A stretch of 64,000 nt of DNA, from positions 47,281-111,280 of IMG/VR virus record IMGVR_UViG_2772190672_000001, one strand, 5' to 3'. The translations under genes and the position numbers were made by a program. Shown in pieces: positions 4,805 through 29,439 of this stretch. Within the stretch, counting starts at the first letter, position 1; each line of letters begins with the position of its first letter. Below the pieces are notes generated by a model. That model made no database searches. It was not told where the DNA came from and saw only the letters and a list, made by a program, of their open reading frames with translations. Source of the DNA: a virus. Lineage: Duplodnaviria > Caudoviricetes.

Positions 4805-4852
4805 TTGACCAACCGGCCGGGTTTACCCTCGTGTCCCGACTGGCTTGGCCCA
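4805..4852 (-). repeat. Palindromic promoter-cassette repeat R1 (degenerate, 48 bp)
   Basis: TTGACC-AACCGG-CCGGGTTTACCCTCGTGTCCCGA-CTGGCTT-GGCCCA. Confidence 0.65.
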
Positions 4853-4889
4853 GGGGCCCCGACTGGTGCGGGGCCCTTGCGCCACTACG

Positions 4890-6053
4890 TCAGGAGGCGC
4901 TGGTCTTGGGGGTGTTGGTGGCCTCCGCCTCGGGGGCGACCCGGAGCGCTCCCGCCAGGACGGTGGCCGCGGTGGCGGCCTTGGCCAGGTTCTGGGCGGC
5001 CTTCGTGGCGACCTGCCGCAGGTGGTCGATCCGCATCTTGTTGCCGGGGATGCCACCGTGCGCCCCGGAGAGGAGGAGCGCCAGCGTGTCGGGATCCAGG
5101 TCGGCGATCTCCTGGAGGATCTTGCCCGCGTCCTCCAGCCTGCCGATCTTGCCGACGAGCTTCTTGCGGTCGGCCACGATCTGCTCGCGCTTGTCGACGT
5201 CCACGGCCAGCTCGGGGAACATGCTGTCGTCGACCTTGTCGGCGCCGGGGGCGTCCTCGGCCAGGACGAACATGACGCTCTGGCTGGCCGCTTCCTGCTC
5301 CTCGTTGCGGACCCTCGTGCAGAACATCTCGGCCTCGCGGGGGCTGTTGAACTGGCCGCGGGTCCAGCGGGCGATGAACGCGTTCTGGTTGGCCGGGCTG
5401 ATCTGCGAGGCGTACCAGGCCAGGCCGACCGGCAGGTGGCCCTTGAGCAGCGCCTCCTGCACGGCGGGCACGAGCTTGAGGAGGGAGAGTCGCAGGTCCA
5501 CGTAGTTCCAGCTCTTGCCGACCCGCTTGGCGACCGCTTCGGGGGTCAGCCCGAAGTCCATCAGCTTCTTGAAGGCCCGCGCCTCCTCCAGCGGGGTCAT
5601 GTTCTCGCGGCTGAGGTTCTCCGCCACCGACCGCTCGAAGCCCTCCAGCGTCTCCGAGCCGCCCTCCAGGCCGTGGGTCACCATCGCCGGGATGTCGGCC
5701 TTGCCTGCGATCTGGGAGGCCCTCCACCGGCGCTCGCCCGCGATCAGCATGTACCGCTTGGTGCCCCGGATGTAGCGGAGGCTGACCGCCTGCTGGACGC
5801 CGATCTCCTTGATGCTGGCGGCCAGCTCCTCCAGCTTCTCCTGGTCGAAGACTTCGCGAGGCTGGTTCGGGTCGCGGTCGATCCGGTCGAGCGGGACCGT
5901 CTTGAACGCCGTCTTGACCGCGGCCGGCGCCGCCGGGGCCGGGGCCGCCGCCTTCTTGGTCGGGGCCTTGCGGGTGGTCGGCTTCTTCGCCGCGTCCTTA
6001 TTGGCGGGGGCCTTCGCGGTGGCCTTCTTGATGGTGGCGGTGGTGGCGGTCAT
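4890..6053 (-). CDS. parB: ParB/Spo0J-family partition protein
   Basis: DPNQPR, LIAGERRWRAS, ENLSRENMTPLEEARAF and HTH; Lys/Ala-rich N-terminus. Confidence 0.9.
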   Translation of the reverse strand: MTATTATIKKATAKAPANKDAAKKPTTRKAPTKKAAAPAPAAPAAVKTAFKTVPLDRIDRDPNQPREVFDQEKLEELAASIKEIGVQQAVSLRYIRGTKRYMLIAGERRWRASQIAGKADIPAMVTHGLEGGSETLEGFERSVAENLSRENMTPLEEARAFKKLMDFGLTPEAVAKRVGKSWNYVDLRLSLLKLVPAVQEALLKGHLPVGLAWYASQISPANQNAFIARWTRGQFNSPREAEMFCTRVRNEEQEAASQSVMFVLAEDAPGADKVDDSMFPELAVDVDKREQIVADRKKLVGKIGRLEDAGKILQEIADLDPDTLALLLSGAHGGIPGNKMRIDHLRQVATKAAQNLAKAATAATVLAGALRVAPEAEATNTPKTSAS

Positions 6054-6100
6054 GGCGCCCTCCGTGGTGAGTGGATGGGTGGTGTGTCGCGCAGTCATCA

Positions 6101-6149
6101 TTGACCAAAGCTCTCGGGGTAACCTCGGTGTGCCAATGGATTTGGCCGT
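6101..6149 (-). repeat. Repeat R2
   Basis: TTGACC-AAAGCTC-TCGGGGTAAC-CTC-GGTGTGCCAA-TGGATTT-GGCCGT. Confidence 0.8.
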
Positions 6150-6221
6150 ACAGTTGGCAAGCGTGCCCAGGTCAGAGCCCTGCCGGAGGCCCACGCCGAG
6201 AGGGCGCGGGCCGGGTGTTCG

Positions 6222-6536
6222 CTAGATGAAGGGGGCCAGCGCCAGGGCCCCGCGGGTGATGACGTCGTCGCCGCCACCCCGGAGGAGGGCGCGGGTGGCA
6301 GCCATCAGGTCGCGGCGGGCCTGCTCGCGGTGCTGGATGACCCTCTGGCGGAGCGTCTCACCGGAGGCGATCAGCTTCTCGTGGTCCAGCTCGCCCTTGC
6401 GGACGCTCCGGCGGATCTCGATCGCCCATTCCACCTGCTCGGTGCGGAGCAGTCGCTTCACGAGGTCGAGTGCGTCACCCGCGTCGCCCGCGCCGGCGAT
6501 CAGCTCGATTTCCTCGGTGAGGGCCGTGATGTCCAT
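6222..6536 (-). CDS. Hypothetical protein
   Basis: GGGAG RBS, MDITALTEEIELIAG; follows R3. Confidence 0.7.
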   Translation of the reverse strand: MDITALTEEIELIAGAGDAGDALDLVKRLLRTEQVEWAIEIRRSVRKGELDHEKLIASGETLRQRVIQHREQARRDLMAATRALLRGGGDDVITRGALALAPFI

Positions 6537-6580
6537 CGCTCGCTCCCTGGGGGGGTTGGTGGTATGTCGTGCATTCATCC

Positions 6581-6629
6581 TTCCGCCAGCCCACCTGGCC
6601 AACCTCGTTGTCCCGGTGGATTTGGTCAA
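6581..6629 (-). repeat. Repeat R3
   Basis: TTCCGC-CAGCCCA-CCTGGCCAAC-CTC-GTTGTCCCGG-TGGATTT-GGTCAA. Confidence 0.85.
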
Positions 6630-6636
6630 AGGATCG

Positions 6637-6981
6637 TCAGGAAACCCGCAGGTCAGCCGGTGGGCGACGGTTGACGTGCACGTGGAGGGTGCCGGGCTCC
6701 AGGACGGGTGACGGGTCCCCGTCGGCCCGCACCAGCTCGGGCCGCAGCTGCTCCAGCCAGGGCCACAGGATGCCGGGGGCGAACGTGACCGCCAGGTGGG
6801 TGGCGCCGCCGAGCCGGGCCGACAGGTCCGCGGCGGTCGTCCTGCGGCGGGGCTCGCGGCGGGGCCTCGCCGTCTGCTGGCGGCCCAGCTCGCCGACCGG
6901 CGCGGGCACGAACCGGGGGGCCAGCGGGGAGACGGGCGCGGCACCGAAGAGGGCGATCTGTCCGGCCGGGGTCTCAGGCAT
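6637..6981 (-). CDS. Hypothetical protein
   Basis: MPETPAGQIALFG; start overlaps the end of the upstream gene. Confidence 0.5.
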   Translation of the reverse strand: MPETPAGQIALFGAAPVSPLAPRFVPAPVGELGRQQTARPRREPRRRTTAADLSARLGGATHLAVTFAPGILWPWLEQLRPELVRADGDPSPVLEPGTLHVHVNRRPPADLRVS

Positions 6982-9355: not shown

Positions 9356-9398
9356 CGTGTGCTCCCTGGAGGTGAGGTGGTGTGTCGCACTTCATTCA

Positions 9399-9447
9399 TT
9401 GACCAAACCTCCCGGTTTACTCTCCCTGCACCGGTGGGTTTGGTCAA
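9399..9447 (-). repeat. Repeat R4
   Basis: TTGACC-AAACCTC-CCGGTTTACT-CTC-CCTGCACCGG-TGGGTTT-GGTCAA. Confidence 0.9.
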
Positions 9448-9470
9448 AGAAGCGGCAGGAAAGCCGCTGG

Positions 9471-10271
9471 TCAGGCCCGGCCCGCCAGCTCCGCCAGGGC
9501 CCGGAGGGCGGTAACCGCCGCAGCGAGGTCTCGGACGGCGATCACGTTGAGATCGAGGCCGAGGGCGCGGACGTCGTGAGCCTGACGGGCGGGGACGAGG
9601 ACGGTGCGGTGGCCGTTGATGTGCGCGGTGCGGGCCGCGTCGGTGACGCCGGGGAGACCGTTGATCGCCCCGTCGAAGCCGCGCAGCTCGCCGAGGAGCA
9701 CGACCTGGCCGAGCACGCGGGAGTCGAGCTGGCCGCTGGCGGCGAGGACGGTGCAGGCTGTCGCGAGGTCGAGCGTGCTGGTCACGTTATGGTGGTCGTT
9801 GATCCGGACCGTCACCGCGCCGTCGGGGAAGGTGAAGCCGCTGCTGACGATCGCGCCGTGGATCCGCCCTTCCGGCGCGGTGTCGAAGGTGTGCCATCCG
9901 GTGATCCGGAAGCTGTCCGGGCCGGGCCAGACCGTGGCCTCGACCAGCACCATCCCGGTGCTGGCGGCGCCGTTGGTGTGGGCGGAGGTGGCGGCCAGGT
10001 TGCTGAGGTTGCTGGTCGGGGCGAGCGCGTAGTCGGGGTTGCCGGATGCCCGCCGCAGGCCGTCGATGAAGCTGTCGAGGGCCTCGGCCCCTGTGGCGCC
10101 CTGGATGATGTCCACCTGGCCGAGGGCGTCGCCCGCTTCGACGTCCAGCTCCTCGACCGCCCTGCGCCTGCGAATGAGGTCGGCCGGCGCGGGGGCGATG
10201 TCCCACAGGGTGTAGCTGGCGGCGTCCCTGCGGCCGACGATGATGAACTCGGGGGTGCGGGTGGTGATCAT
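9471..10271 (-). CDS. Second ComM/YifB N-terminal-domain protein, no ATPase
   Basis: RIHGAIVSSGFTFP...DLATACTVLAASGQLD...VLLGELRGFDG. Confidence 0.7.
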   Translation of the reverse strand: MITTRTPEFIIVGRRDAASYTLWDIAPAPADLIRRRRAVEELDVEAGDALGQVDIIQGATGAEALDSFIDGLRRASGNPDYALAPTSNLSNLAATSAHTNGAASTGMVLVEATVWPGPDSFRITGWHTFDTAPEGRIHGAIVSSGFTFPDGAVTVRINDHHNVTSTLDLATACTVLAASGQLDSRVLGQVVLLGELRGFDGAINGLPGVTDAARTAHINGHRTVLVPARQAHDVRALGLDLNVIAVRDLAAAVTALRALAELAGRA

Positions 10272-10651: not shown

Positions 10652-10699
10652 GTCTGGCGCTCCGTCCCTGATGGGTGGTGGTGTGTCCTGCCTTCATCT

Positions 10700-10748
10700 T
10701 TCCGCAAACAAGCCGGGATAACCTCGCTATCCCGGCTGAATTGGTCAA
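10700..10748 (-). repeat. Repeat R5
   Basis: TTCCGC-AAACAAG-CCGGGATAAC-CTC-GCTATCCCGG-CTGAATT-GGTCAA. Confidence 0.85.
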
Positions 10749-10770
10749 GGATTGTCAGGAAAGCCGCTGG

Positions 10771-12567
10771 TCAGGCGGCCAGGTCGTAGCGGTCGATCTC
10801 CTCGCCGGTGATGCACTCGGCGAGCATGCAGATCAGGACCTCCGAGACGTTCGGGGTGACCGCGTTGCCCAGCTGGCGCACCCGGTCGCGCTTCGAGCCC
10901 AGCACCACGTAGTCGTCGGCGAAGGCCATCGCGCGCTGGATCTCGTGCGGCTGGAGCATCCGGAACAGGACGTCTTCGATCTTGATGTCCCCCTGGACCA
11001 GGGCGAAGCGGTCACGGGTGGAGATCGCGCCGACGGGCTCGCTGACCGGGCGCGGGGTCCCGTTGCCGTAGTACGGGGCCAGGAAGGGTTCCCAGGTGAC
11101 GAGGGACTGGTGGCCGGTGGTGGTGAGGGTCCGCATCGGCTCGGCCAGGTCGGTGCAGTGCTCGCCGCCGTCGCCGGTGGAGCCGTTGTTCCGCATCATC
11201 ATGCCCGGCATCGGGACCGCGGCCAGGCCGTGGTGATTGCCGCTGGCGCAGACCGTCGCGAGCGGGTCGCTGATCGCGCGGACGTCGCTGCTGCCGCCCC
11301 GGATCTCGGTGATGAACGGCAGCCACGCGAGCCCGGCCTCGGCCCTGGCGGTCTGGGTCTGCATCGGCCCGTAGACCGTGCGGGCGTTCTTGCCTTCGCG
11401 GCCGTCGCACGGGACGAGCAGCGGCGGTACCGCCAGCGCGTCATTCTCGCGGGTGGTGCGGGTCGGCATCGGGTCGAGGAGGTCGGTGGCCGAGTCCCGC
11501 CAGGTGCCGCCGGTGGGCACCATCAGCGGGCGGGCGAACTTGTCCAGCCCGGCCTGGATGCGCCGCATCGTCTTCTCGGCCAGCGGGGTCTTGCGGTCGC
11601 CGATCCGACCGCCCGCGATCGACCAGTCGATGGCCGCCGCCGCGGGGAGCGTCTCGGGTTCCACGATCTGGTGGCCACACTTCGTGTTCGGGCACCGGTA
11701 GTCGTACTGGCTCTTGTACCGGCCCATGTCGACGCCGGGCTTCCGGAAGACCTGCCGGGCCTTGACCATCTGGTCGCAGCCGGTGCAGAACGCTGAGGGG
11801 GCGAGCCACTTCTCGAAGTTCGGGGTGCGGCCGAGGCTCTGGTGCCAGTAGACCAGGTAGAGACGGTCGCGGGACTGCGGGGCGCGGTGCACCGAGCGCG
11901 GCTCGGCGTGCATCGAGTTCAGCGCGACCAGCCGGGTCCGGTAGCCCATCTTGTGGAACTCCGCGATCCAGCGGTCCCACTCGGCCCACTGCCGGACGTC
12001 GACCACGTTCTCGACCACGCCCGCCTTGACCAGGCCGCCGCGCTCGATTACGCCTCGCAGGTAGAGCGGGATCTCTTCCATCAGCGCCCGACTGGCCTCA
12101 TCCTCCGCCGTCGGGCCGCTGTCCCTCTCGTCCTCCGTCTGGAACTTATCCGCCTCCAGGTCTGCGTACAGGTCGAGCAGGTCGCCCTGGACGGCCTTGG
12201 CGAAGTCCCGCTTTTTGCCCTGGGCAATGCTCCACCGAGTGCACTCGGGCGAGCCCCAGTGGATGTCGGTGATCGGCCAGGCCCAGACCGGGGCCTTGCG
12301 GATGTCGCCGATGTAGTGGGCGACGCCGGGGAAGTTCCGCTCGTGACTCTCGATCGCCCGCCGCCAGTGGTTCGCGGCCCGGGTCACCTTGACGTTCGGG
12401 ACGGCGTCCGCGCCCTGGGTGGAGCCACCCGCCCCGCAGAACCAGTCCATGACCGACAGCTCGGTGCCGTCGTGCCTGTACGCCTTGGTTCGCCGGCGCA
12501 GGGCGTAGGTCTGGGCCGAGCTGGAGGCCGAGGCCATCGCGCGGGTGGTGGAGGAGATGTAGGGCAT
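10771..12567 (-). CDS. C5 cytosine DNA methyltransferase (no cognate nuclease seen)
   Basis: Motifs FCGAGG (I), SPEC (IV), ENV (VI), QSRDR (VIII), LGNAV (X). Confidence 0.95.
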   Translation of the reverse strand: MPYISSTTRAMASASSSAQTYALRRRTKAYRHDGTELSVMDWFCGAGGSTQGADAVPNVKVTRAANHWRRAIESHERNFPGVAHYIGDIRKAPVWAWPITDIHWGSPECTRWSIAQGKKRDFAKAVQGDLLDLYADLEADKFQTEDERDSGPTAEDEASRALMEEIPLYLRGVIERGGLVKAGVVENVVDVRQWAEWDRWIAEFHKMGYRTRLVALNSMHAEPRSVHRAPQSRDRLYLVYWHQSLGRTPNFEKWLAPSAFCTGCDQMVKARQVFRKPGVDMGRYKSQYDYRCPNTKCGHQIVEPETLPAAAAIDWSIAGGRIGDRKTPLAEKTMRRIQAGLDKFARPLMVPTGGTWRDSATDLLDPMPTRTTRENDALAVPPLLVPCDGREGKNARTVYGPMQTQTARAEAGLAWLPFITEIRGGSSDVRAISDPLATVCASGNHHGLAAVPMPGMMMRNNGSTGDGGEHCTDLAEPMRTLTTTGHQSLVTWEPFLAPYYGNGTPRPVSEPVGAISTRDRFALVQGDIKIEDVLFRMLQPHEIQRAMAFADDYVVLGSKRDRVRQLGNAVTPNVSEVLICMLAECITGEEIDRYDLAA

Positions 12568-12611
12568 TCGGTCCGTCCCTTCCGGGTGGGTGGGTGTGTC
12601 GTCCTCTTTCA

Positions 12612-12660
12612 TTGACCCCACCCCTCGGGATAACCTCGTTATCCCGATGGGTTTGGTCAA
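12612..12660 (-). repeat. Repeat R6
   Basis: TTGACC-CCACCCC-TCGGGATAAC-CTC-GTTATCCCGA-TGGGTTT-GGTCAA (perfect inner stem). Confidence 0.95.
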
Positions 12661-12683
12661 AGAATCGTCAGTGAAGCCGCGGG

Positions 12684-13568
12684 TCAGATGCCGTCCGGCC
12701 GGAACGGGATCAGGGGGAAAAGGTCCCGGTCGAGCGCGTACCAGCCCCACTCGTGGCCGCCGATGGCGTACCGGCCGTCGGCGTTGGGGTGGAGGACCTC
12801 GACCGCCTGCTCGCGCCGCTCGCCGGCGAGGTGCATCCAGCAGGTGACGATGACGACCGCGTGCCGGGTGCGGTTGACCCTGCCGCTCAGGACGTGAACG
12901 GTGTCGATCGAGCCGTGCCCGTACCTGGCGGCGTCTCGCTGGGTGTCGGCGGCGATCCGGCGGACGGTGCGGAGGTCGAGCCAGGGCCGCACGTAGCCGT
13001 CGCGCTGGTCAGCGGGGTCGATGAGCGCCGGGTAGTGGTCGCGGTCGTTGGCACACACCAGGACTTCGACCATCGAGCCGGGGGCGGCTTCCGGGGCGGC
13101 CGGGCTGGGCGGGTCGAGGGTGAGGGAGGCGGCCCGCATGAGGTCGAGGGTGAAGGCGGGTCGGCCGTAGCGGTCGGGCAGTTCGTCGCACAGTGGGCGC
13201 CAGACACCTCGGGTGTTGTCGTCCAGGTATGCCGTCCAGCCACTGAGGTCGTGCAGGGCGTTCCCGGCCTCGGTCTGGCCGACGTCGTCGGTGAAGGTGC
13301 GCTCGGCGCCGGCCGTCGTCCAGTAGCGGCCGGTGGGAAACAGCGAGTCCTCGCCTGCGACCAGTTCGAGGCGGGCGGCATCGAAGGGGGCGCCGGGCTG
13401 GTGGCCGGTGAGGATGTCGCGGACGGCCGCGGCGGTGACGACGAGCATGACGCGGCCGAGCTGCTCGTGCGCGGTCTGGTTGTCGTTCAGGGCCTGGTCG
13501 ACGGCTGCGCCGAGCGCGCTGCTGGCGGGCAGTTCGTAGGCGGGGCGAGAAGGGGGCTGGCGGTCCAT
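12684..13568 (-). CDS. Hypothetical protein, partial paralog of 14599-15702
   Basis: Shared GYVRP..L..TQ...DTVHV...P.ADGRY.IGG.EW.W domain. Confidence 0.75.
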   Translation of the reverse strand: MDRQPPSRPAYELPASSALGAAVDQALNDNQTAHEQLGRVMLVVTAAAVRDILTGHQPGAPFDAARLELVAGEDSLFPTGRYWTTAGAERTFTDDVGQTEAGNALHDLSGWTAYLDDNTRGVWRPLCDELPDRYGRPAFTLDLMRAASLTLDPPSPAAPEAAPGSMVEVLVCANDRDHYPALIDPADQRDGYVRPWLDLRTVRRIAADTQRDAARYGHGSIDTVHVLSGRVNRTRHAVVIVTCWMHLAGERREQAVEVLHPNADGRYAIGGHEWGWYALDRDLFPLIPFRPDGI

Positions 13569-13611
13569 GCCGGGTCCGTTCTGTGTGTGGTGGGTGTTGC
13601 ATCCTCGATCA

Positions 13612-13660
13612 TTGACCCCACCATCCGGGGTAACCTCGTTACCCCGGCCGATTTGGTCAA
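13612..13660 (-). repeat. Repeat R7
   Basis: TTGACC-CCACCAT-CCGGGGTAAC-CTC-GTTACCCCGG-CCGATTT-GGTCAA (perfect inner stem). Confidence 0.95.
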
Positions 13661-13682
13661 AGAAGCGTCAGGAAGTCGCTGG

Positions 13683-14570
13683 TCAGGCCGTGATGCCGTC
13701 GGCCAGGTACGAGCCACCGTCAGCCACACGCAGGGCGAATACCTCGGCCTTCGGGCCGCGCTCGGCGCGCAGGGCGCCGTGCCAGCGGTATCCGTCGAAG
13801 TCGGGCCGTCGGCCGCCTTCGTTCTGCCAGTGCAGCTGCCATCCGGGCCAACCCGGCTTGCTGGAGTCGCTCAGCCCGCCGGCGAACCCGAGCGAGCAGA
13901 CGAGCAGCCGCAGCCCGACCATGAACGCCTTGGAGTGCATGCGCACCTGGTTCCGCTCACGGTGCGGGGCGCCGTGGACGAGGCCCACGAGGAACGCGAT
14001 CCGCAGCGTCTCGGGCATCGTCAGCGCCCAGGCCGGGAAGCGGCGTCCGGCCCCGTACTGGCCGAAGTGCTCGGCGAGCCAGTCGACCAGCTCGGGCCGC
14101 AGTGCCGCCGCGGCTGAGCCCTTGAGCCGGATCATGGCCCCGGCCGTGCGGAAGACGTCCACGGGGTCGGCGTCGGCGAGGGGGGCGGGCAGGTCGGGGA
14201 TCGCCAGCGGATCCCCGAAGTGGAGGGGTGAGGCCAGCCGGTGTCGGTCGGTCAGGTCGCGGACCCTGGTCCAGCCCGCAGCTGACAGCTCACCGGCCGG
14301 GCCACCGTCCAGCAGGACGGGCGCGGTTCGCGCGTGGAACGGGTGGTCGGCCGTCGTGACGAGGCCGGTGGCGAGCGTGGCGCAGTGGACGCGGACAGTG
14401 TCGGCGATGGCGCTCATAGTCTCGGTGACCGGCTGCCACCGGCGCTCGTGGGTGAACACCTCATCCCCGGCGGTGACGGTTTCGATGGGGGTGAGGCCGC
14501 GCAGAGTCAGGATCATCGTTCCGGCGGCGAAGCCCTCGGGGGCGGGCTCCAGGGGGGTCTGGTTGCTCAT
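13683..14570 (-). CDS. Free-standing Hint/intein-like protein with degenerate LAGLIDADG region
   Basis: GFAAGTMILTLRGLTPIE (block A), LVTTADHPF (block B), AFLVGLVHG, VFALRVADGGSYLADGITA (blocks F/G without HN). Confidence 0.75.
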   Translation of the reverse strand: MSNQTPLEPAPEGFAAGTMILTLRGLTPIETVTAGDEVFTHERRWQPVTETMSAIADTVRVHCATLATGLVTTADHPFHARTAPVLLDGGPAGELSAAGWTRVRDLTDRHRLASPLHFGDPLAIPDLPAPLADADPVDVFRTAGAMIRLKGSAAAALRPELVDWLAEHFGQYGAGRRFPAWALTMPETLRIAFLVGLVHGAPHRERNQVRMHSKAFMVGLRLLVCSLGFAGGLSDSSKPGWPGWQLHWQNEGGRRPDFDGYRWHGALRAERGPKAEVFALRVADGGSYLADGITA

Positions 14571-16066: not shown

Positions 16067-16108
16067 GCCGGGCTCCCTGGGTGATGGTGGGTGGTGACAC
16101 CTTCTTCA

Positions 16109-16157
16109 TTGACCCCACCTGCCGGGATAACCTCGATATCCCGGTTGATTTGGTCAG
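16109..16157 (-). repeat. Repeat R8
   Basis: TTGACC-CCACCTG-CCGGGATAAC-CTC-GATATCCCGG-TTGATTT-GGTCAG. Confidence 0.9.
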
Positions 16158-16181
16158 GGAATCGACAATGAAGCCGCTGGT

Positions 16182-17009
16182 TCAGGCCATCGCGAACAGG
16201 TCGAGCTGGAACGGCTGGCGCTGGTGCCAGCCGTGGGTGGGGAGGGTGCCGTCAGGGTCGGCATCCAGGCACAGGAGGACGGTCCTGACGTCCGCCCCGG
16301 ACGGCTTGAACGCGTCGTCGGGCAGCGGGACGATCTCGCCCTCGTTGTCGGCGATCAGCTTGCGGAACTCCTGCGCGGGCCGGTCGAGGTGCCAGGTGAT
16401 CGACTCGGGCATGACGGCCACGAGGGTGCCACCGTCCTTCAGGAAGCCCAGGGCGTGCATGACGTGGGCGGTGGCGTTGCCGAAGGGCGGGTTCATCAGG
16501 ATGCGGTCGTACGGCTCATCGATGGCGAGCGGGTCGAGGTCGAGGAAGTCGCCCTGGACGACCTGGCGGGCGATGCCGAGCTCCCGGAGGACGTGGGCTC
16601 GGCGGGGGTCGATCTCGACGCAGTCCACGATGCCCATCTCCTCGGCGGCCCGCTTGGCGAGCGAGCCGACACCGGCCGACGGTTCCAGCACCGTGTGGCC
16701 GACTCGGATCGAGGCGTGCTCCAGCATGTCAAACACCACGGCGGGCGGGGTCGGGTACCAGCCCTGTTCGAACTTCGACGGCCACTCGCCGGCCGCGAGG
16801 CAGTCGCGCATGAACTGCTCCACCGGGAAGGGGAAGACGTGGGCTCGAACCGCCTTGCGGCCGTCCCACCGGCCGCCAATGTCCTTGAGCATCTGGTTCA
16901 TCCGGCCGTACAGAGCGCGGTCGAGCTCGAAGGGGACGGCTACGCGGTCGCCGCTGATGATCGTGCGGTAGTCGGTGAGGACGGTGAGGACGTCGGCCGG
17001 GATCTGCAT
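16182..17009 (-). CDS. Small N6-adenine-type SAM-dependent methyltransferase
   Basis: WYPTP, VLEPSAGVG, VQGDFL, MNPPF. Confidence 0.9.
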   Translation of the reverse strand: MQIPADVLTVLTDYRTIISGDRVAVPFELDRALYGRMNQMLKDIGGRWDGRKAVRAHVFPFPVEQFMRDCLAAGEWPSKFEQGWYPTPPAVVFDMLEHASIRVGHTVLEPSAGVGSLAKRAAEEMGIVDCVEIDPRRAHVLRELGIARQVVQGDFLDLDPLAIDEPYDRILMNPPFGNATAHVMHALGFLKDGGTLVAVMPESITWHLDRPAQEFRKLIADNEGEIVPLPDDAFKPSGADVRTVLLCLDADPDGTLPTHGWHQRQPFQLDLFAMA

Positions 17010-17482: not shown

Positions 17483-17530
17483 TACTGCCCCTTTCCGGGG
17501 GATTTGGCGTGTTGTGTCGCATCCTCTTCA

Positions 17531-17579
17531 TTGACCCCGCCCGCCGGGTTAACCTCCGTAACCTGTTGAGTTTGGTCAA
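17531..17579 (-). repeat. Repeat R9
   Basis: TTGACC-CCGCCCG-CCGGGTTAAC-CTC-CGTAACCTGT-TGAGTTT-GGTCAA. Confidence 0.9.
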
Positions 17580-17633
17580 GTAATCGCCAGCGGAACCTCC
17601 CGGCCGGTGGTCCGCTGCGCGGGCCCCGGCCCG

Positions 17634-19452: not shown

Positions 19453-19496
19453 GTCGGGCTCCTGGGGGTTTGTAGTGGTTGGCATCATCCTCTTCA

Positions 19497-19545
19497 TTGC
19501 CGATACCTTCCGGGGTAACCTCACTACCCTGATTGATTTGGTCAA
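19497..19545 (-). repeat. Repeat R10
   Basis: TTGCCG-ATACCTT-CCGGGGTAAC-CTC-ACTACCCTGA-TTGATTT-GGTCAA. Confidence 0.85.
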
Positions 19546-19568
19546 GAAATCGTCAGGGAAACCGCAGG

Positions 19569-22316
19569 TCAGGCCACTGCGAACAGGTCCAACTGTTCCG
19601 GCGTCTGGTCGTCGGCCTCCAGCGGGGGCAGCTCCGCCATCGGCTTCTGCTTGAGGTCCGGCAGCACCGGCCGCGGCTGCGGGTTCTCGGCGTCCTCCCG
19701 CAGCTCGGCGACTACCGCGGCGTCCAGATCGTGCGTCTCGATCTCCTCGTCGCTCGGCACCCATCCGGCCGGCCGCCGCTGGAGCCGGAAGACGATGCCG
19801 TGCACCTTCGCCCAGGCCGCCCAGAGCCGGTCTTCCCGGTCCTCCCACTCCATCAGCCGCTTGTGGGCCTCCCGGAACTCTGCGCTCGCTGCCTTCCGGT
19901 CGGCCGCGTCCTTGGCGGCCTGTTCGGCGAGCCTGCGGGCCTGGACCCCATGGAGGAGCGGACGCAGCTTCTCGCATTCCTGCTCGCGGTTCTTCTCCAC
20001 CGGGCGCGGCTTCCACCGCTTCCACACGGCCACCGCCCGGCGGCCGTCGACTGTCACCAGCACCGGCCGCTCACGGTTGGCGTCGGCCGCGCCGACGGTG
20101 ACGAACCCGGCCTTCTGCAGGGCGCTCAGCCGGTGGACCGACATCAGGCGGCCAGCGGTGCCGGGGATGTCCCGGCAGTACAGCGAGCCGAACTGATGGA
20201 GGTAGAGCCGTCCGGCAGCCGCGGCGATGACGAATTCGGCCTGGCCGGTCGACCAGCCGAGCGCGGCGGCCTGCTCGCGCTGCAGACGCAGCTCCTTCGG
20301 GTCCTCGGTGGGCGGGGCGGGCTCGTCGATCGGCTGCTCGGGCTCGGGGGCCGGGGGCTCGTCGACCGGCTGCTCGGGCTCGTCGACTGGTGCGGCCACC
20401 TCGGCGGGCGGCTCGGGGGCCGGGGGTTCCTCGGCCGGGGGGTCGACCGGCGCGGCCTGGTCGGCCGAGGGCTGCTCGGGCGCGGCCTCGGTGGGTTCGG
20501 TGGGCTCGATGCCGTGGACGATGCCGCTTCCCACGCTGCCGCTCCAGTTGCTGCCCCGGTACCGGAAGCCCTCCGCCACCAGGAGCCGCCAGACCTCCCG
20601 CTTCAGTGCCGCCGAGTAGACCGCGTCCGTGAACTTCGTGCCCTCGGGCGCCGTGATGGTGACCGGCTGCCTCAGCTTGTGCGGCTGGCCCTTGCCGTCG
20701 AGGAACGTCAGCGTCGCCTCGGTGGCGTCCCACCCGCACTCGACCTTGACCTTCTTCGGGATCTTCGGGTCGCTGCGCTTCTTCGTCTTCGGCTTCGCGG
20801 CCTGCGCGGCGCGGACCTCGCTCGCCGGCTGCGCTAGGTGGGCCTTCTCCGCCGACTTCGTGCCGGGCACCTTGCCGTCCGCGAGGAAGGCCATCATCGC
20901 GGCCTCCGGACAGCGGGCCCGGATCTTCGTGTAGTCCATGCCGAAGGTCCAGGTGCTGCCGCCTTCGGTGGCGTCCTCCAGCGTCATCACCGCTTTCGGC
21001 GCCAGCCTCAAATTCCACGCGATGGACAGCGTCTTGGGGTTGGCCCGCTTGATCTGGTACCAGGTGCCGCTGTAGAGCGCGAAGTCGCCGGGGGCGAAGT
21101 CGTCGGCCTCCCACAGCTTCACGCCGTTCTGGCGGGCCTCCTCGACCACCTTTTCCCAACCGGCGATCTCCTCGGTCAGGTCCTCGATCCGCCGCTCGTA
21201 CCGGCCCGCGTCCCGGCCCGCGGCCAGCTGCTCGTCCCTCCAGCGCTCCTGCTGGCGCAGCTCCGCGTTCAGCTTCTCCAGCCGCCGGCGGGTGCGGTTC
21301 GGGTCGTAGCGGCGGGCCTCGTACTTCGCGGCGGCCTCCGCGCGGTCGCTGTGGTACTGGGCCTTGCCGTGTTCCTCGATCGAGGCCCGCATGTTGTTGT
21401 CGCTGCGCTCGATGGCGCGGCGATGGCGGCGCTCGCTGTGGTGGCCGACGAGGATCGGCTGGCCGGGCTCGATGCCGTCGAGCGCCCCGAGGGCCGCCTT
21501 GTGGCGGGCGTCGGAGCGGGCGGCCGCGCGGCCGGCGTAGTCGCTGTGCCGCTCGGCCCGATTCTCGGCCCGCTCCAGCCGCTCAGCCTCGGCCTCCTTG
21601 AAGCTGCGCCGCTGGGTCTCGTCGATGTCGACGGTCACCTCCCACCCGGCCTCGCGCAGGGCCTTGACCGCCCGGTTGATGCGCAAGCGGTCGGCTTCCC
21701 GGTCGCGGGAGTTGCGGATGTAGAGCGCGCCGAGGTTGCGGGAGGAGCGGAAGCCGATCGGGCGGACGATCTCCCAGACGCCGTCGTGCTTGCGGGAGCC
21801 CTCCAAGAGCGTGCCGTCCGCGCGGGTGTGGGTGATGGTGAGCGAGCCTTTGAAGGACGGCTCCTCAGTCGGGGGCTCCTCAGCCGGGGGCTCGTCGGCC
21901 GGGGGCTGCTCGCCCTCTTCCGGCTGCGCCGGGTCCTCGAGGACCGCCGTCTCACCGGCGGGCTCCTCCGGCTCGGGGGCGGTGGCGGGCTGGGCGGGCG
22001 GTTCCTCGCGGACCTTCTCGACGGCCCCGTTGCTGATCGTGCAGTGCGGGCGGCCCTTGTCGCTGTACCGGACGCACACGGTGAACGACCAGCCGCCGTC
22101 TTCGAGCGCCCAGCGCTCGATGTCGTCTGCGCGGGCCGCGACCGTCTCGTCCGCGTGCCCGGTGAGGGTGAGGACGTAGGTCCGGATGCGCTCGCCGGCG
22201 CCGTTGTAGTCGCCGTCGATGCGGAAGTCCTTGCCCTTGCCCTGGGTGAGGCCGAGGCGCCGCAGGGCGCGGGCGATGGCGATGCTGGGCGTCTTGGCGG
22301 GTGGGGTGGTGGCCAT
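19569..22316 (-). CDS. Large multidomain DUF3560-containing protein with Pro/Glu linkers
   Basis: GQPILVGHHSERRHRRAIER; ITHTRADGTL shared with 17634-18659; AAGGAGG RBS. Confidence 0.8.
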   Translation of the reverse strand: MATTPPAKTPSIAIARALRRLGLTQGKGKDFRIDGDYNGAGERIRTYVLTLTGHADETVAARADDIERWALEDGGWSFTVCVRYSDKGRPHCTISNGAVEKVREEPPAQPATAPEPEEPAGETAVLEDPAQPEEGEQPPADEPPAEEPPTEEPSFKGSLTITHTRADGTLLEGSRKHDGVWEIVRPIGFRSSRNLGALYIRNSRDREADRLRINRAVKALREAGWEVTVDIDETQRRSFKEAEAERLERAENRAERHSDYAGRAAARSDARHKAALGALDGIEPGQPILVGHHSERRHRRAIERSDNNMRASIEEHGKAQYHSDRAEAAAKYEARRYDPNRTRRRLEKLNAELRQQERWRDEQLAAGRDAGRYERRIEDLTEEIAGWEKVVEEARQNGVKLWEADDFAPGDFALYSGTWYQIKRANPKTLSIAWNLRLAPKAVMTLEDATEGGSTWTFGMDYTKIRARCPEAAMMAFLADGKVPGTKSAEKAHLAQPASEVRAAQAAKPKTKKRSDPKIPKKVKVECGWDATEATLTFLDGKGQPHKLRQPVTITAPEGTKFTDAVYSAALKREVWRLLVAEGFRYRGSNWSGSVGSGIVHGIEPTEPTEAAPEQPSADQAAPVDPPAEEPPAPEPPAEVAAPVDEPEQPVDEPPAPEPEQPIDEPAPPTEDPKELRLQREQAAALGWSTGQAEFVIAAAAGRLYLHQFGSLYCRDIPGTAGRLMSVHRLSALQKAGFVTVGAADANRERPVLVTVDGRRAVAVWKRWKPRPVEKNREQECEKLRPLLHGVQARRLAEQAAKDAADRKAASAEFREAHKRLMEWEDREDRLWAAWAKVHGIVFRLQRRPAGWVPSDEEIETHDLDAAVVAELREDAENPQPRPVLPDLKQKPMAELPPLEADDQTPEQLDLFAVA

Positions 22317-22630: not shown

Positions 22631-22671
22631 GTCCGGCTCCCTGGGGGTGGTGAGTGGTGACACCTTCTTCA

Positions 22672-22720
22672 TTGACCCCATCCATCGGGTTAACCTCGTT
22701 AGCCCGATGGATTTGGTCAA
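22672..22720 (-). repeat. Repeat R11
   Basis: TTGACC-CCATCCA-TCGGGTTAAC-CTC-GTTAGCCCGA-TGGATTT-GGTCAA. Confidence 0.95.
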
Positions 22721-22742
22721 AAGGTCGGCAAGTATAGGCAGG

Positions 22743-23267
22743 TCAGCGGCCGTCGAGACTCGCCAGCTGGCGGACTAGCCCCCAGCCGTCGCGCCAGAAG
22801 GAACGGCGGGTGTTGTCGTACGCCTCCTGCCACTCGGGCGGGACCCGGCCGTCACCTCGGGTGTACGTGCCGGTGAGGCCGTCGTACCGGCCCAACAGCT
22901 CGGTGGCGTCGTCAGCGAGTTCATCGAGGCCGCGCCGCCGTTCATGCTCGGGACGCAGATCGACGTGCCCGAGCTCGTGCTGCCCCTGAGGCAGACCCTC
23001 GTACGACTCGTCGGCGACCACGTAGCAGTCGGGCGTCTCCTCGCCTGCCATGTGCCAGGCGAGCGCTGCCGCCCACGCCTTCTCCGTCGAGCAGGCGTCG
23101 AGCACGTACCGGGTGGCGCTGCCGCTGCGGCCGCTGCAGTCGTGCCGCTCGGGGCCTCGGACGGTCACGGTGAACGGCCGCTCCGCCTGCCGGTAGTCGT
23201 CGGGCAGATTGCCGTACAGGGGCTCGCCGCCGTAGCGCTCGGGCGTCTCCAGGTACTTCCCGGTCAT
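22743..23267 (-). CDS. Hypothetical protein
   Basis: GGAAGGA RBS, MTGKYLETPERYGG. Confidence 0.7.
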   Translation of the reverse strand: MTGKYLETPERYGGEPLYGNLPDDYRQAERPFTVTVRGPERHDCSGRSGSATRYVLDACSTEKAWAAALAWHMAGEETPDCYVVADESYEGLPQGQHELGHVDLRPEHERRRGLDELADDATELLGRYDGLTGTYTRGDGRVPPEWQEAYDNTRRSFWRDGWGLVRQLASLDGR

Positions 23268-23902: not shown

Positions 23903-23988
23903 GGCGGCCTTTCGTGGGGGCGGAGGAGGGTCCGGACGGCGGCCGCTGAGCTGGGCGGACACTGTCCGGACGCCGTCCGGACAGTGGG

Positions 23989-24618: not shown

Positions 24619-24663
24619 GGCTGCTGCTCCGATCTGGGGTGGTGGGTGGTGACACCTTCTTCA

Positions 24664-24712
24664 CTGACCCCACCCATCGGGGTAACCTCATTACCCCGAT
24701 GGATTTGGTCAA
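24664..24712 (-). repeat. Repeat R12
   Basis: CTGACC-CCACCCA-TCGGGGTAAC-CTC-ATTACCCCGA-TGGATTT-GGTCAA. Confidence 0.95.
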
Positions 24713-24735
24713 GAAGTCGACAAGGAAGCCGCCGG

Positions 24736-25350
24736 TCAGACCGAGGTGGCGGCGGCGGTGAAGGCGGCGTCCAGGGACTGGACGAAGTCCGCGCCGACGG
24801 CCGCGAGGTGGGCGGCCTGGCGAGCATCGGCCTGCTCGGCATTCTTGGCGTGGGCGGCCAGGCCGCACGAGCACCAGGCGGTCGTGCGGTCGCTGGATTC
24901 CATGCGCTGATGCTTGGCGGCCACCAGGCTGAGGCGAGCAGACAGGGTGAGCCGCAGGTGCTCGTTGTCGCCGTTGAGGAGGAAGCCCTGCGCGAGGAGC
25001 CGGTCGGCCTGGCTGGGCGGAATTTCGTACGAGCCGGCCGCGATGACGGGCATCGTGTACCGCTCGGAGTCGACGAGCCGGACGGCGGGGACGGAGGCGA
25101 TGACCCGCAGGTTGGCCAAGTCGTAGTCGCTGGGGTCGGCGGGGACCCGCGGGGTGAGGGTGATGGAGCGCACGACCCGGGCACGGGTGGCGGGGTCGAT
25201 CCGACGCCAGCGGATGACGGCGCCGCCGGTGCGCTGGGGCTCGATGGCGTAGCCGCGGTTACAGGCCCGGCGCAGGAGGAGCAGGGCGTGGGGCTCACTG
25301 ACGCTGCCGGTGGTGATGCTGCTGCCGCTGTCGACGGTCTCGGTGAACAT
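24736..25350 (-). CDS. Hypothetical protein
   Basis: AAGGAG RBS, MFTETVDSG; C-terminal WCSCG..H. Confidence 0.7.
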   Translation of the reverse strand: MFTETVDSGSSITTGSVSEPHALLLLRRACNRGYAIEPQRTGGAVIRWRRIDPATRARVVRSITLTPRVPADPSDYDLANLRVIASVPAVRLVDSERYTMPVIAAGSYEIPPSQADRLLAQGFLLNGDNEHLRLTLSARLSLVAAKHQRMESSDRTTAWCSCGLAAHAKNAEQADARQAAHLAAVGADFVQSLDAAFTAAATSV

Positions 25351-25428
25351 AGTGGCCGCTCCTTGCTGTCGGGGTGGGCCCGGCCGGGTCCGTGGCCGAG
25401 CCCTGGGTGGTGTGTCGTACATTCATCC

Positions 25429-25477
25429 TTGACCAAGCCCAACCGGTTAACCTCCCTACACCGGCCGATTTGGTCAA
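25429..25477 (-). repeat. Repeat R13
   Basis: TTGACC-AAGCCCA-ACCGGTTAAC-CTC-CCTACACCGG-CCGATTT-GGTCAA. Confidence 0.9.
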
Positions 25478-25500
25478 GGGATCGACAAGGAAGCTGCTGG

Positions 25501-25884
25501 TCAGCGGTCCAGCTTGCCGAACATGACGTCGGCCACGGACGGGCCCGGCCTGCCCGAGCCGGGCAGCTTCCCGTACAGCGCTCCCTCGCCGGGGCCGCGC
25601 TCGTCGTCCGGCTCGGGCTGCCGCTCCGCCTGCTCGGGCCCGGCCTCCTCGACCGGCGCGCCGTGGCGGGCGAACAGGGCCTTCAGCTTGTCGTCGTCCT
25701 CCAGCAGCTCGCGCACGACCTTGCCGGTGGCCTCGCTGTGTTCGTCGCAGGTGGCGAGCCCGTAGCCGCTGCTGGCGTACACCAGCAGGTACGCCTCGAC
25801 GCTCTCACCGCCCAGCAGGTGGCGGACGCACTGCATCGGGGTGCTGATGCGGTGCTCGTAGGTGCGGATCCAGTTGATGTTCAT
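25501..25884 (-). CDS. Hypothetical protein
   Basis: AAGGGA RBS; ORF track. Confidence 0.65.
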   Translation of the reverse strand: MNINWIRTYEHRISTPMQCVRHLLGGESVEAYLLVYASSGYGLATCDEHSEATGKVVRELLEDDDKLKALFARHGAPVEEAGPEQAERQPEPDDERGPGEGALYGKLPGSGRPGPSVADVMFGKLDR

Positions 25885-27516: not shown

Positions 27517-27527
27517 GGGGAGCCCTC

Positions 27528-27881
27528 TCAGCTGGCCAGCGCGATCATGTGCGCGGCGATTCGGTGCTTGCAGTCGCACTTCGACCGGAGTCCGGCCGGG
27601 CAGGTGCAGGCGGAGTGGGTGGTGCGGTAGGCGGTGCTGCCGTCGCTGCTGACCGCGAGGAACACGCGGTTCTTGCCGGTGTCGCGGAGGTGGATGATCC
27701 CGCCCTGTTCCAGCAACTCGACCGCCCGCTCGACCAGGTGGGTCTTGTAGCGGCGGGTGATCTGCTCGGAGCGTCCGGCCTTGCGCACCATCCGCCTGCA
27801 CTTGGGCCCGAGACCGTCGGGCGAGGTGTTGCGGAGCCGCGTGTGGCATCGCGTGCACCGGGTCTCCGGCTTGTTGTCCAT
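27528..27881 (-). CDS. Zn-finger protein (DUF6011-like N-terminus plus SWIM-like finger)
   Basis: CTRC..L....GLGPKC and CTCPAG...CKH. Confidence 0.65.
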   Translation of the reverse strand: MDNKPETRCTRCHTRLRNTSPDGLGPKCRRMVRKAGRSEQITRRYKTHLVERAVELLEQGGIIHLRDTGKNRVFLAVSSDGSTAYRTTHSACTCPAGLRSKCDCKHRIAAHMIALAS

Positions 27882-27922
27882 GGCGGCTCCCTTGGGGTGG
27901 GTGGTGTGTCGTGCATTCATCA

Positions 27923-27971
27923 TTGACCGAATAATCCGGGATTACCGTGTTATCCTGGTTTATTTGGTCAA
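27923..27971 (-). repeat. Repeat R14
   Basis: TTGACC-GAATAAT-CCGGGATTAC-CGT-GTTATCCTGG-TTTATTT-GGTCAA. Confidence 0.9.
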
Positions 27972-28024
27972 AGAATCTTCAAGGGATGAGTACTCCGCCG
28001 CAGGTCAGCGGCGGGGCGCCCACC

Positions 28025-28789
28025 TCAGTCGGTCAGCTCGGCGATCAGCACCGTGGCGTTGTCCACGTACTTCCACTCGCCCTCCGGCCGGCTCTTGCGG
28101 GACGTCTCCACGGCCAGGTCCACGAAGCCCTGCGCGATGCCCCGCAGGTCACCGTCGTCCAGCTCCACGTACAGGTCATGCCCGGCCTCGTCGTGCGGCT
28201 CGTACGCGCCGTCGCTGGCCAGGACAAGGCGGTCGCCGTCGACCAGCGGGCGGGCGGCGGCCTCGATCGCCGGGTGGCCGTAGATGTCCAGGGCTTCCTG
28301 GTCGGTGTAGACGGCCCCCAGGTAGGAGGTGATGACGTTGCGGCTGCCGCCCTCGGGGTTGGTGGCGGCGGGCGGGAGGACCCGGCGCTCGTTGTGGTCG
28401 TCGGTCAGCCGGTAGGCGATGCCGCGCCGGAGCAGGTAGGCGCGGGAGTCCCCGGCCCAGGCCAGGCCGAGGGAACGGCCGGGGGCGGCGACCGCGACGA
28501 CGGCGGCCGCGCTGGGCATGTACCGCCGGGTGTACGGGTCCTGACGGTCGGGGTCGGCCGCGATCTCCTCGTAGAGGGAGCGCAGGGCGCTCTCGGCGTC
28601 GCCGCGGCGGGCGGCCCGGATGGCGAGGCGGGCGGCCGTCCGGCGGGTCCAGTCGCGGATCGCCTCGGAGGTGCCGATGCCGTCGAGGACCACGTAGGCG
28701 CGGGTGCCGTCGGGGGCGGTACGGACGGCTGCCGCGTCGCACTGGAGGCCCCTGCCGCCGGTGTTCTGGGCGGTCGCGTAACTGCGCAT
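28025..28789 (-). CDS. PP2C/PPM-family Ser/Thr phosphatase
   Basis: GGR..QCD, VLDGIG, AWAGDSRAY, LTDDH, LASDG, DNATV. Confidence 0.85.
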   Translation of the reverse strand: MRSYATAQNTGGRGLQCDAAAVRTAPDGTRAYVVLDGIGTSEAIRDWTRRTAARLAIRAARRGDAESALRSLYEEIAADPDRQDPYTRRYMPSAAAVVAVAAPGRSLGLAWAGDSRAYLLRRGIAYRLTDDHNERRVLPPAATNPEGGSRNVITSYLGAVYTDQEALDIYGHPAIEAAARPLVDGDRLVLASDGAYEPHDEAGHDLYVELDDGDLRGIAQGFVDLAVETSRKSRPEGEWKYVDNATVLIAELTD

Positions 28790-28862
28790 GGATCGTTCTC
28801 CGTTCAGTGAGGGGTGAGGGGGCGCCGCGCGGCCGGGTGGCCGCGCGGCGCCGTCGGCTCGG

Positions 28863-29351
28863 TCAGGCGCGCTCGCCGGCGGGGCGGACGCAGGTCTCGT
28901 GGGTGTGGCAGTTGCACTTCCCGCAGCCCGCGCACATCTGCCCGGCCTCCAACCCGCAAGGGCCGCAGCCGCCGGTCGCGTCCAGCTCGGCGTCGTCGAG
29001 CGCACAGGTCAGGTCGGCGGCTGCGGCCAGACTGAAGCGGGGGCGGGGTTTGCACGAGCCGTCGCAGGTCTCGGGGCCACCGAGGAGCACGCCGTCCTCG
29101 CCGGCGTGACCGTCGCAGCCCGCGGGGTCTCGGACGATCACGGTGACGTCGTGGACCTTGAGCGTGGCCTCGCCACGGATGGCCCAGTCCGAGGCGATGC
29201 CGCCGACGATGGCGATCATCTCGCGGTCGTTGGTGGTGGGCTTGCCCTGAGCGCGGGCGACGCCCCAGACGATGTTCCGCAGCTCGCCCTGGCGGTCGGC
29301 GAAGTAGGTGCGGTCCTCGATGCCGGGGTGCTCGATGGTGACTTCGAACAT
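28863..29351 (-). CDS. Hypothetical Cys-rich protein
   Basis: AAGGAG RBS; CGPC..CAGCGKCNC. Confidence 0.65.
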   Translation of the reverse strand: MFEVTIEHPGIEDRTYFADRQGELRNIVWGVARAQGKPTTNDREMIAIVGGIASDWAIRGEATLKVHDVTVIVRDPAGCDGHAGEDGVLLGGPETCDGSCKPRPRFSLAAAADLTCALDDAELDATGGCGPCGLEAGQMCAGCGKCNCHTHETCVRPAGERA

Positions 29352-29389
29352 GGGCTGCTCCTTCGTGGGTGGGTGTTCCTTGCCCATCT

Positions 29390-29439
29390 TGGACCATGTG
29401 GACCAGGATTGTGGACGTTATCCCAAATAAGTTGGTCGA
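29390..29439 (-). repeat. Repeat R15 (degenerate, 50 bp)
   Basis: TGGACC...CCAGGATT...GTTATCCC...TTGGTCGA; upstream gene's stop begins 23 bp away. Confidence 0.6.

Follow-up and report, generated by a model that had tools for sequence, protein, structure and literature searches.

The temperate Streptomyces phage phiC31 has many similar early promoters together with conserved inverted repeats, and its dyads are 17-bp repressor sites. Closest to the element reported here, among those described, are the ESAS motifs that cluster K mycobacteriophages carry and, in T4-like phages, the PeSL cassettes. ESAS are intergenic motifs of 46-47 bp, in which SigA-like hexamers lie 17-18 bp apart within an imperfect inverted repeat (PMC11373665, PMC3203893), and those of mycobacteriophage Adephagia have been read as SigA-like promoters (PMC11373665). 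They occur in one orientation and only in the non-structural half of the genome, their left arm is better conserved, and a conserved ribosome-site motif follows them; their function has been called unclear (PMC3203893, PMC11373665). Here, we analyze a 64,000-nucleotide stretch of a Caudoviricetes virus (the window; positions 47,281 to 111,280 of the IMG/VR record IMGVR_UViG_2772190672_000001), in which fifteen copies of a palindromic element are dispersed over a 25-kb accessory region. A first-pass annotation had described them as repeated promoter-operator units and had not recognised the motif as known, which holds for its sequence, but not for its kind, since the ESAS of cluster K mycobacteriophages are of that kind (PMC11373665). 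The repeat is a real, conserved and lineage-specific control element. With a probability of about one half, we read its copies as promoters for the host RNA polymerase that contain a built-in dyad and a conserved leader, each of them heading a small accessory transcription unit.

Repeat finding and alignment placed the fifteen copies (R1 to R15) exactly where the first-pass annotation had them, all intergenic and all in the sense of the minus-strand genes. Thirteen of the dyads are 49 bp long, as had been stated, while those of R1 and R15 measure 48 and 50 bp. A covariance model of the fifteen copies, run over the whole 111,280-bp record, returned the same fifteen and one weak additional copy at 29647-29743; it found none in the remaining 86 kb of the phage, and all matches lie between positions 4775 and 29743 of the window. 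The 49-bp dyad is real but belongs to a larger conserved unit of about 111 nucleotides (nt), which spans from the stop codon of the upstream gene to a CA-rich leader. This unit consists of a block that starts at the upstream TGA, a second TG-C-GA box, the 49-bp dyad, an ATGA-rich block and the CA-rich block, and a GGGAG-type ribosome site and the start codon follow 5-20 nt further on. TGAC-type boxes are found three times in direct and once in inverted orientation per element, and the proximal two are 11 bp apart. The elements have a G+C content of 46-65%, compared with 71% for the genome. The 49-bp consensus initially proposed is idealised, because only three copies fit it within three mismatches, although none would be expected to do so by chance. 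Likewise, the hexamers TTGACC and GAGGTT, which had been ascribed to each copy, are each exact in 11 of the 15.

The position of the element relative to the upstream gene is also largely fixed. Ten of the fifteen upstream genes stop at one and the same element column and one more stops at the second TGA, and in ten copies the dyad starts about 27 nt past the upstream stop codon. The proposal that the element supplies the stop codon holds only partly: the position is fixed in these ten copies, yet many other genes also end in TGA followed by CC, which is found at 34 of 100 other TGA stops of the phage. Pairing of the 3' arm with the CA-rich leader was considered as well and rejected, because the mutual information between them reflects two leader haplotypes and not base pairs.

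The search of other genomes with a covariance model and with patterns, which had been proposed as a check, and look-ups guided by a protein brought to light six related Streptomycetaceae prophages with syntenic arrays. In Streptomyces sp. Act143, the prophage (also an IMG/VR record) contains 18 copies, and that of Streptomyces sp. DH12 contains seven by the model and at least two more by eye. Four more prophages were reached via homologues of a 203 amino acid protein encoded at the head of the array, namely in S. misionensis, Actinacidiphila reveromycinica, S. niveus and a record with a protein named S. afghaniensis; each has a syntenic array, with three to six copies in the 20 kb taken. The total set comprises 54 copies from seven prophages, and earlier subsets of 15 and 40 copies were used for some of the counts below. 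The hosts belong to Streptomyces and the related genus Actinacidiphila, and the prophages with the element are about 111-119 kb long. In two lysogen chromosomes, model and pattern matches are found solely inside prophages, and wherever the outer inverted repeat is matched exactly in two lysogen genomes (8-10 Mb), the match is again inside a prophage. A sample of 150 other Streptomyces genomes, with 25 candidates scored per genome, gave no strong model match, but this blank is partly a limit of sensitivity, because the protein-guided look-ups then gave four more element-bearing prophages. Exact-pattern scans of viral, genome and metagenome collections produced mostly single chance matches, with two Streptomyces genomes being real, and the metagenome and viral loci from these scans gave no strong model match. 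Megablast of 8 kb and of 20 kb of the window against a phage collection detected no close cultured relative. Judged by the terminase (46% identity), Saccharomonospora phage PIS 136 comes nearest among cultured phages, and its first 50 kb contain no such repeat.

Between two phages, copies that share a position are 75% identical, as opposed to 63% for non-orthologous pairs; the sites are therefore old and individually maintained, and they have not been homogenised. The gene order is otherwise syntenic over the seven prophages, and the proteins are 60-95% identical. When three prophages were compared gene by gene, the differences were largely whole element-plus-gene units: Act143 has extra cassettes, and DH12 is without two such units. 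The view that the copies split the array into gene groups is supported, and it is these element-plus-gene units that vary between relatives.

The arms of the dyad covary, as had been noticed in single copies, and this is borne out statistically on 15, 40 and 54 copies and between orthologous copies of two prophages. In the 54 copies, 76% of the cells pair and 14 of the 23 pairs have changed on both sides. Double-change cells number 70 compared with 35.7 ± 4.9 in shuffles, none of which (0 of 500) reaches 70, and slid controls reached one third of the score. Even the five sequence-variable 'spacer' positions pair in 97 of 200 cells, where 69 ± 5 are expected. Between orthologues in two phages, twelve pairs had changed on both sides and stayed paired and seven had lost pairing, and distant copies retain a perfect 12-bp inner stem of differing sequence. 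Folded as single-stranded DNA and compared with shuffled sequences, the palindrome forms a significant hairpin in 10 of the 15 copies of the window, but has decayed in the other five; some copies contain a 2x2 internal loop. Mismatches of the G.T and A.C types are about equally frequent (57 versus 52 in 40 copies, 75 versus 75 in 54 copies). Therefore, the symmetry is probably held in double-stranded DNA, or by quasi-palindrome template-switch correction, and not by an RNA hairpin of one strand. Only the outer 9 bp of the arms are conserved, and unequally so, while the inner arms differ between copies within one phage. Because they covary instead of keeping one sequence, a single sequence-specific dimer is a poor fit. 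The 3-nt dyad centre is conserved and asymmetric in most copies, and the stem is followed by an A/G-rich block instead of a U-tract.

Several features of the element resemble those of a promoter. The 5' outer arm, TTGACCAA, hardly varies, and its G, C, C, A and A are invariant in 40 copies. It contains 15.5 bits of information, whereas its mirror partner contains 11.0 bits, and the 3' and 5' inner arms contain 11.4 and 9.8 bits, respectively (40 copies). Among the 54 copies, TTGACC is exact in most, in line with a -35 box close to TTGACN, and an nAnnnT hexamer (A at position 2, T at position 6) is present 16-17 bp past this first hexamer in 41, whereas the antisense strand has one in 4 of 54. 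Of these 41 copies, 35 have a spacer of 17 bp and six have one of 16 bp, both within the 16-18 bp expected. The remaining hexamer positions vary (GAGGTT, GAGGGT, CAGAGT, GAGATT, GAAGGT, TAGGGT and others), while the A and T persist across the variants in all seven prophages, as the first-pass annotation had claimed from the copies of the window. The stretch between the two boxes is almost free of indels, both boxes are retained where the dyad has lost its fold, and 37 of 40 copies have a purine in the column 7 nt past the second hexamer. Every copy points in the direction of the genes, and the predicted start would be about 55-65 nt ahead of the start codon. A stricter E. coli-type scan, in which the elements themselves also fail, detected no promoter in 20 kb of the array. 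Gaps without an element are occupied by translationally coupled genes or by strong GC-rich hairpins just past the stop and contain no promoter-like sequence; the elements are therefore the only candidate starts, each of which would drive one to five genes. A domain search of the phage proteins yielded no Sigma70_r2 or r4_2 match, and because the phage is without a detected sigma-70-family domain, the host polymerase is expected to be used.

The element would thus be read by the host RNA polymerase in each cassette, with TTGACC as the -35 box and a weak -10 box, nAnnnT and mostly GAGGTT, 17 bp downstream of it. Transcription would start inside the 3' arm, at the conserved purine about 7 nt past the -10 box, and the mRNA would have a leader of about 55-65 nt that contains the ATGA-rich block, the CA-rich block and the GGGAG-type ribosome-binding site. 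The fifteen cassettes would divide the 25-kb accessory region into small transcription units that are switched together. We take the 49-bp dyad to be the control part; as a binding site or as a cruciform-prone spacer, it could make the promoter dependent on supercoiling or on a factor from the phage. For such a factor, the divergently encoded tandem helix-turn-helix (HTH) protein is the best candidate, and it could read the TGAC boxes.

Several observations weigh against this reading. The second hexamer is far from TAnnnT at position 1, where it has G and not T, and the elements do not pass an E. coli-type scan. Thirteen of the 54 copies are without an nAnnnT hexamer (one via a mislocated -35 box), and several have C or T at the A position, as in GCGGTT. 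Conservation reaches beyond the normal extent of a promoter, by about 27 nt on the upstream side and about 45 nt on the downstream side, and neither a promoter nor a single sequence-specific operator needs compensatory changes of the arms. Finally, the dyad is located past the stop codon just where other gaps have their GC-rich hairpins, which hints at a role in RNA. Other promoter registers, in the downstream ATGA block or as SigB-like or ECF-like readings of the arms, were dropped, because their key positions are not conserved. An N4-type hairpin or Frpo-type promoter was also discarded: scans of the large proteins tested named no polymerase, and a 23-bp stem cannot contain both hexamers.

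The array does not share operators with the immunity switch of the phage. This switch (60512-61501) is of the classical type and consists of a 157 amino acid XRE-type HTH gene on the plus strand (61028-61501) that faces an 87 amino acid Cro/C1-type gene on the minus strand (60512-60775), with three 16-bp palindromes CTTGCG-N4-CGCAAG between them at 60798, 60843 and 60963. These palindromes are unrelated in sequence to the dyad and were found nowhere else in the phage and in none of the elements. The array must therefore be governed by something other than this switch. Of the original promoter-operator proposal, the promoter-like architecture and orientation of the element are supported, whereas the operator part is weak: the inner arms covary, and the operators of the switch are unrelated.

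A candidate regulator of the array is the 203 amino acid tandem-HTH protein, which is encoded on the plus strand at 29798..30409, divergently to the array and as the only plus-strand gene at its head. In a structural model (pLDDT 86), it consists of two similar repeats, each with a long helix, a helix-turn-helix and a basic tail. The protein is present in all seven prophages examined and has about 36 homologues, the named ones being in Streptomyces or Actinacidiphila. Pfam yields a weak HTH match, sequence searches led to no solved relative, and fold comparison gave nothing significant. The protein may read the repeated TGAC boxes. A 17-bp palindrome next to its gene (29724-29740) was tried as a shared operator and rejected, because it is not conserved in the relatives.

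The main alternative, which we consider possible but clearly less probable than a promoter, is that the dyad acts in RNA. A 23-bp hairpin in read-through transcripts would then end, process or stabilise the upstream message, for example via RNase III, the downstream blocks would be a translation leader, and TTGACC would be incidental or secondary. RNase III sites occur between the genes of phage T7, and the 2x2 internal loop of some copies resembles such sites. The location of the dyad about 27 nt past the stop codon in 10 of the 15 copies, the strong GC-rich hairpins that directly follow the stop in element-free gaps and the compensatory arm changes would all be explained, and R1 and its orthologues combine a GC-rich upstream hairpin with a decayed dyad. 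Nevertheless, the equal numbers of G.U and A.C mismatches reveal no wobble tolerance on the sense strand, and the 5' outer arm is far more conserved than its pairing partner. The conserved asymmetric centre of most copies and the missing U-tract also speak against such a hairpin, and the elements are AT-richer than the GC hairpins used elsewhere. A variant of the promoter reading would accommodate the paired arms at the DNA level: in a family of structure-gated promoters, the region from the -35 box to the start would be a cruciform-prone 49-bp dyad, and the output would depend on supercoiling or on a phage protein able to read this region in its extruded or its linear form. About 15 accessory transcription units would then be switched at once by a single physical signal, for example the state of phage DNA that has just entered or been induced. 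We regard this extended scenario as speculative and rather improbable.

Similarly doubtful is a function as non-promoter binding sites, at which a tandem-HTH or ParB-like phage protein silences or organises the region, comparable to KorB of IncP plasmids or to the stoperators of mycobacteriophage L5. The arrangement of the TGAC-type boxes, the restriction of exact outer-repeat matches to the prophages of two lysogen genomes, the ParB-family genes in and beside the array and the conserved divergent tandem-HTH gene at its head are all compatible with this. However, the inner dyad varies within one phage and so is not one operator sequence, relatives do not share the 17-bp palindrome beside the HTH gene, and the conserved nAnnnT hexamer and the leader would be left unexplained. 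Still less probable is a recombinational role, in which the repeats are cassette boundaries for gene gain, loss or exchange, the mechanism being homologous recombination, which has been proposed for PeSL, or a site-specific process like that of integron attC sites. The prophages do differ largely by element-plus-gene units, conserved outer repeats surround a variable paired centre as in attC sites, the stop codon has a fixed place in the element, and the phage encodes RecT and a YqaJ-type exonuclease. Yet gene order is otherwise syntenic across the seven prophages, which disfavours an integron-like system, and orthologous elements are closer to each other than paralogous ones, indicating little conversion or turnover. 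Moreover, no integron-type integrase adjoins the array (the sole tyrosine recombinase of the window is located at the prophage end, 62195-64000), and TGA-CC is a general stop context. That the copies are selfish miniature elements of the MITE or REP type, which spread in the region without a function for the phage, is very improbable. They are dispersed, palindromic and of similar length, but all have one orientation, are without target-site duplications and are confined to one 25-kb region, with none in the host chromosome; in addition, they occupy orthologous positions across prophages and are under purifying selection at specific columns.

The provirus record was judged complete, and the window is its right-hand 64 kb. 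Nearly all genes of the window are located on the minus strand. In the direction of transcription, the gene order starts with the integrase and the CI/Cro-type switch, followed by recombination genes (YqaJ-type exonuclease, RecT, RusA), sugar-modification genes, a membrane/NERD operon and the 25-kb element array; beyond the array, a ParB-like gene and a Dam-like/GNAT gene precede terminase, portal, tape measure and amidase. The array comprises about 33 genes, and Pfam confirmed the gene content that had been named from the sequence, i.e., ParB, C5- and N6-type methyltransferases, PP2C and ChlI/ComM-like domains. ParB-family genes are found both inside the array and adjoining it. The designation of the array as a host-takeover or anti-defence regulon was based on such gene names and is conjecture.

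The individual copies are described here in the order of transcription, all on the minus strand, with bits denoting the covariance-model score and z the significance of the single-stranded DNA fold versus shuffled sequence. The weak sixteenth copy (29647..29743; 20.1 bits, E 0.07) has no dyad and is located upstream of the first gene of the array (29462-29632), in a region that is conserved in two of the compared genomes, G001 and G003. R15 (29360..29470; 60.6 bits) has a degenerate dyad of 50 bp without a significant fold and lies upstream of a gene for a 162 amino acid protein (28863-29351). R14 (27893..28002; 91.9 bits, z -2.7) heads the genes from 27528-27881 onward and has orthologues in G001 and G003. 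R13 (25399..25509; 93.3 bits, z -4.3) heads gene 24736-25350 and contains an extra GC-rich hairpin in its leader, while R12 (24634..24744; z -6.8), with 113.8 bits the best copy of the window, heads the genes from 23989-24618 onward. R11 (22642..22751; 104.8 bits, z -6.5) precedes a small gene and a gene for a 915 amino acid protein with a DUF3560 domain in Pfam. The dyad has decayed in R10 (19467..19577; 95.3 bits, z +0.3), which has both hexamers, with GAGGTT at 17 bp, and also in R9 (17501..17611; 85.9 bits, z -0.5), which heads ParB-HTH-like and methyltransferase-like genes (Pfam). R8 (16079..16189; 103.1 bits) heads the genes from 15770-16066 onward, and R8 and the next gene, encoding 98 amino acids, are absent from the DH12 prophage.

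R7 (13582..13691; z -4.8) fits the 49-bp consensus exactly and heads gene 12684-13568. R6 (12582..12692; 106.2 bits, z -7.8) heads a C5 DNA methyltransferase gene (Pfam) and differs from its orthologues by a compensatory T-A/C-G change. Two copies are followed by two genes, one of which has a ChlI domain (Pfam): R5 (10670..10779; 100.7 bits), with 10379-10651 as the first gene, and R4 (9369..9479; 103 bits, z -6.1), with 9137-9355, the second hexamer of R4 being GAGAGT. R3 (6551..6661; 99.2 bits) heads gene 6222-6536, and the gene upstream of it ends at the second TGA of the element. R2 (6071..6180; 80.2 bits, z -0.2), in which the first hexamer and the dyad have decayed, heads the ParB gene 4890-6053 (Pfam). 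R1 (4775..4884; 61.6 bits) heads gene 4252-4764; it has a degenerate 48-bp dyad and a GC-rich hairpin in place of the upstream block, and a like form is present in G001 and, by eye, in G003.

Additional features were observed within the array and around it. The gap between genes 38038-38298 and 38974-40185 contains, at 38541-38610, an upstream block (TGACC-TGCGG) fused to a 3' inner arm, like a deleted copy of the element, and a second copy of the upstream block is found 54 nt further upstream on the minus strand, i.e., at higher window coordinates. Tandem 22-bp repeats and long hairpins based on a GTCCGGAC-type motif occupy two neighbouring gaps of the array (23267-23372 and 23902-23989) and positions 46526-46563, and GTCCGGAC-like motifs are present in the corresponding gaps of the DH12 prophage. 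Gene 23989-24618 contains two 315-bp tandem copies at 24003-24557, which are 75-81% identical and correspond to an internally duplicated protein. A free-standing gene for a 295 amino acid protein with a Hint-domain N-terminus (13683-14570) is present, together with the element after it, in two prophages and missing from the DH12 prophage. Just upstream of the terminase gene (866-3150), a ParB_N-domain gene overlaps a gene in which a Dam-like domain is fused to a phage GNAT-like domain; these genes are 84-94% identical in the relatives and probably form a DNA-modification module. The sugar-enzyme cluster at 38974-45179 encodes a family-28 glycosyltransferase, a DegT-type aminotransferase, an ATP-grasp ligase and an NDP-sugar dehydratase, and is adjoined by a plus-strand gene for a 384 amino acid protein that matches the PHROG 'transcriptional regulator'. 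The operon at 30476-37737 encodes small and mostly uncharacterised proteins, one of them with a NERD domain, and in the relatives the protein adjoining the NERD gene carries SpdB_N, a Streptomyces plasmid-spread family. PIS 136 encodes an FtsK/SpoIIIE protein, which together with the neighbourhood of the NERD operon suggests a phage with plasmid-like transfer genes. PIS 136 also contains, at 12845-13050 and 15685-15890, two short repeat arrays with a CRISPR-like layout, in which a unit of about 23-28 bp recurs with a period of 61 bp.

If the promoter reading is correct, the prophages provide more than 50 natural variants of one Streptomyces-active promoter, which are graded in -10 box, spacer and dyad and presumably respond to one signal. 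They would help to explain the timing of accessory and possibly anti-defence genes in large temperate actinophages and could serve as parts for Streptomyces engineering. The compensatory evolution, at the DNA level, of a dyad that encloses a promoter is unusual and is the most unusual trait of the element; with it, cruciform- or symmetry-dependent control of promoters, which is an old idea, becomes directly testable.

Compared with other repeats of phages, the element shares individual features with several systems. Like the L5 stoperators, it is a phage-specific site with many oriented copies in short intergenic gaps and is tied to the control of lytic genes (PMC9283540), but stoperators are asymmetric 13-bp sites bound by the immunity repressor, whereas here a 49-bp dyad contains promoter-like boxes and the immunity operators are unrelated. 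The 17-bp repeats of cluster O mycobacteriophages are also lineage-specific multi-copy palindromes distributed through non-structural genes; in contrast to the present element, they are short, invariant-armed, unoriented, often intragenic and without promoter-like boxes (PMC4351075). With the PeSL of T4-like phages, it has in common that small repeats combining a promoter and a stem-loop are located between accessory genes and coincide with the indels of close relatives (PMC2839356, PMC4122927). Yet, the stem-loop of PeSL is a separate terminator beside the promoter, while here the boxes are inside the dyad and the arrays are largely syntenic and not hyperplastic.

The most extensive agreement is with ESAS. 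Both are intergenic motifs of about 46-50 bp that occur in one orientation, are limited to the non-structural part of the genome and are retained at orthologous genes, and in both, -35/-10-like hexamers lie 17-18 bp apart inside an imperfect inverted repeat that is followed by a conserved ribosome-site motif. On the other hand, the hosts differ and there is no sequence similarity, with ESAS compared by description and not by alignment of its consensus. The 13-bp SAS is absent here, and the ribosome-site motif is merely GGGAG(C)-like, its longer form not being enriched. The architecture differs as well: ESAS has arms of 15-17 bp and a spacer of 4-14 bp, whereas the present dyad has 23-bp arms and a 3-nt centre and is embedded in a unit of about 111 nt with upstream TGAC boxes, a long leader and documented compensatory changes of the arms. 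The present element also suggests that ESAS may be part of a wider class of control elements in actinophages.

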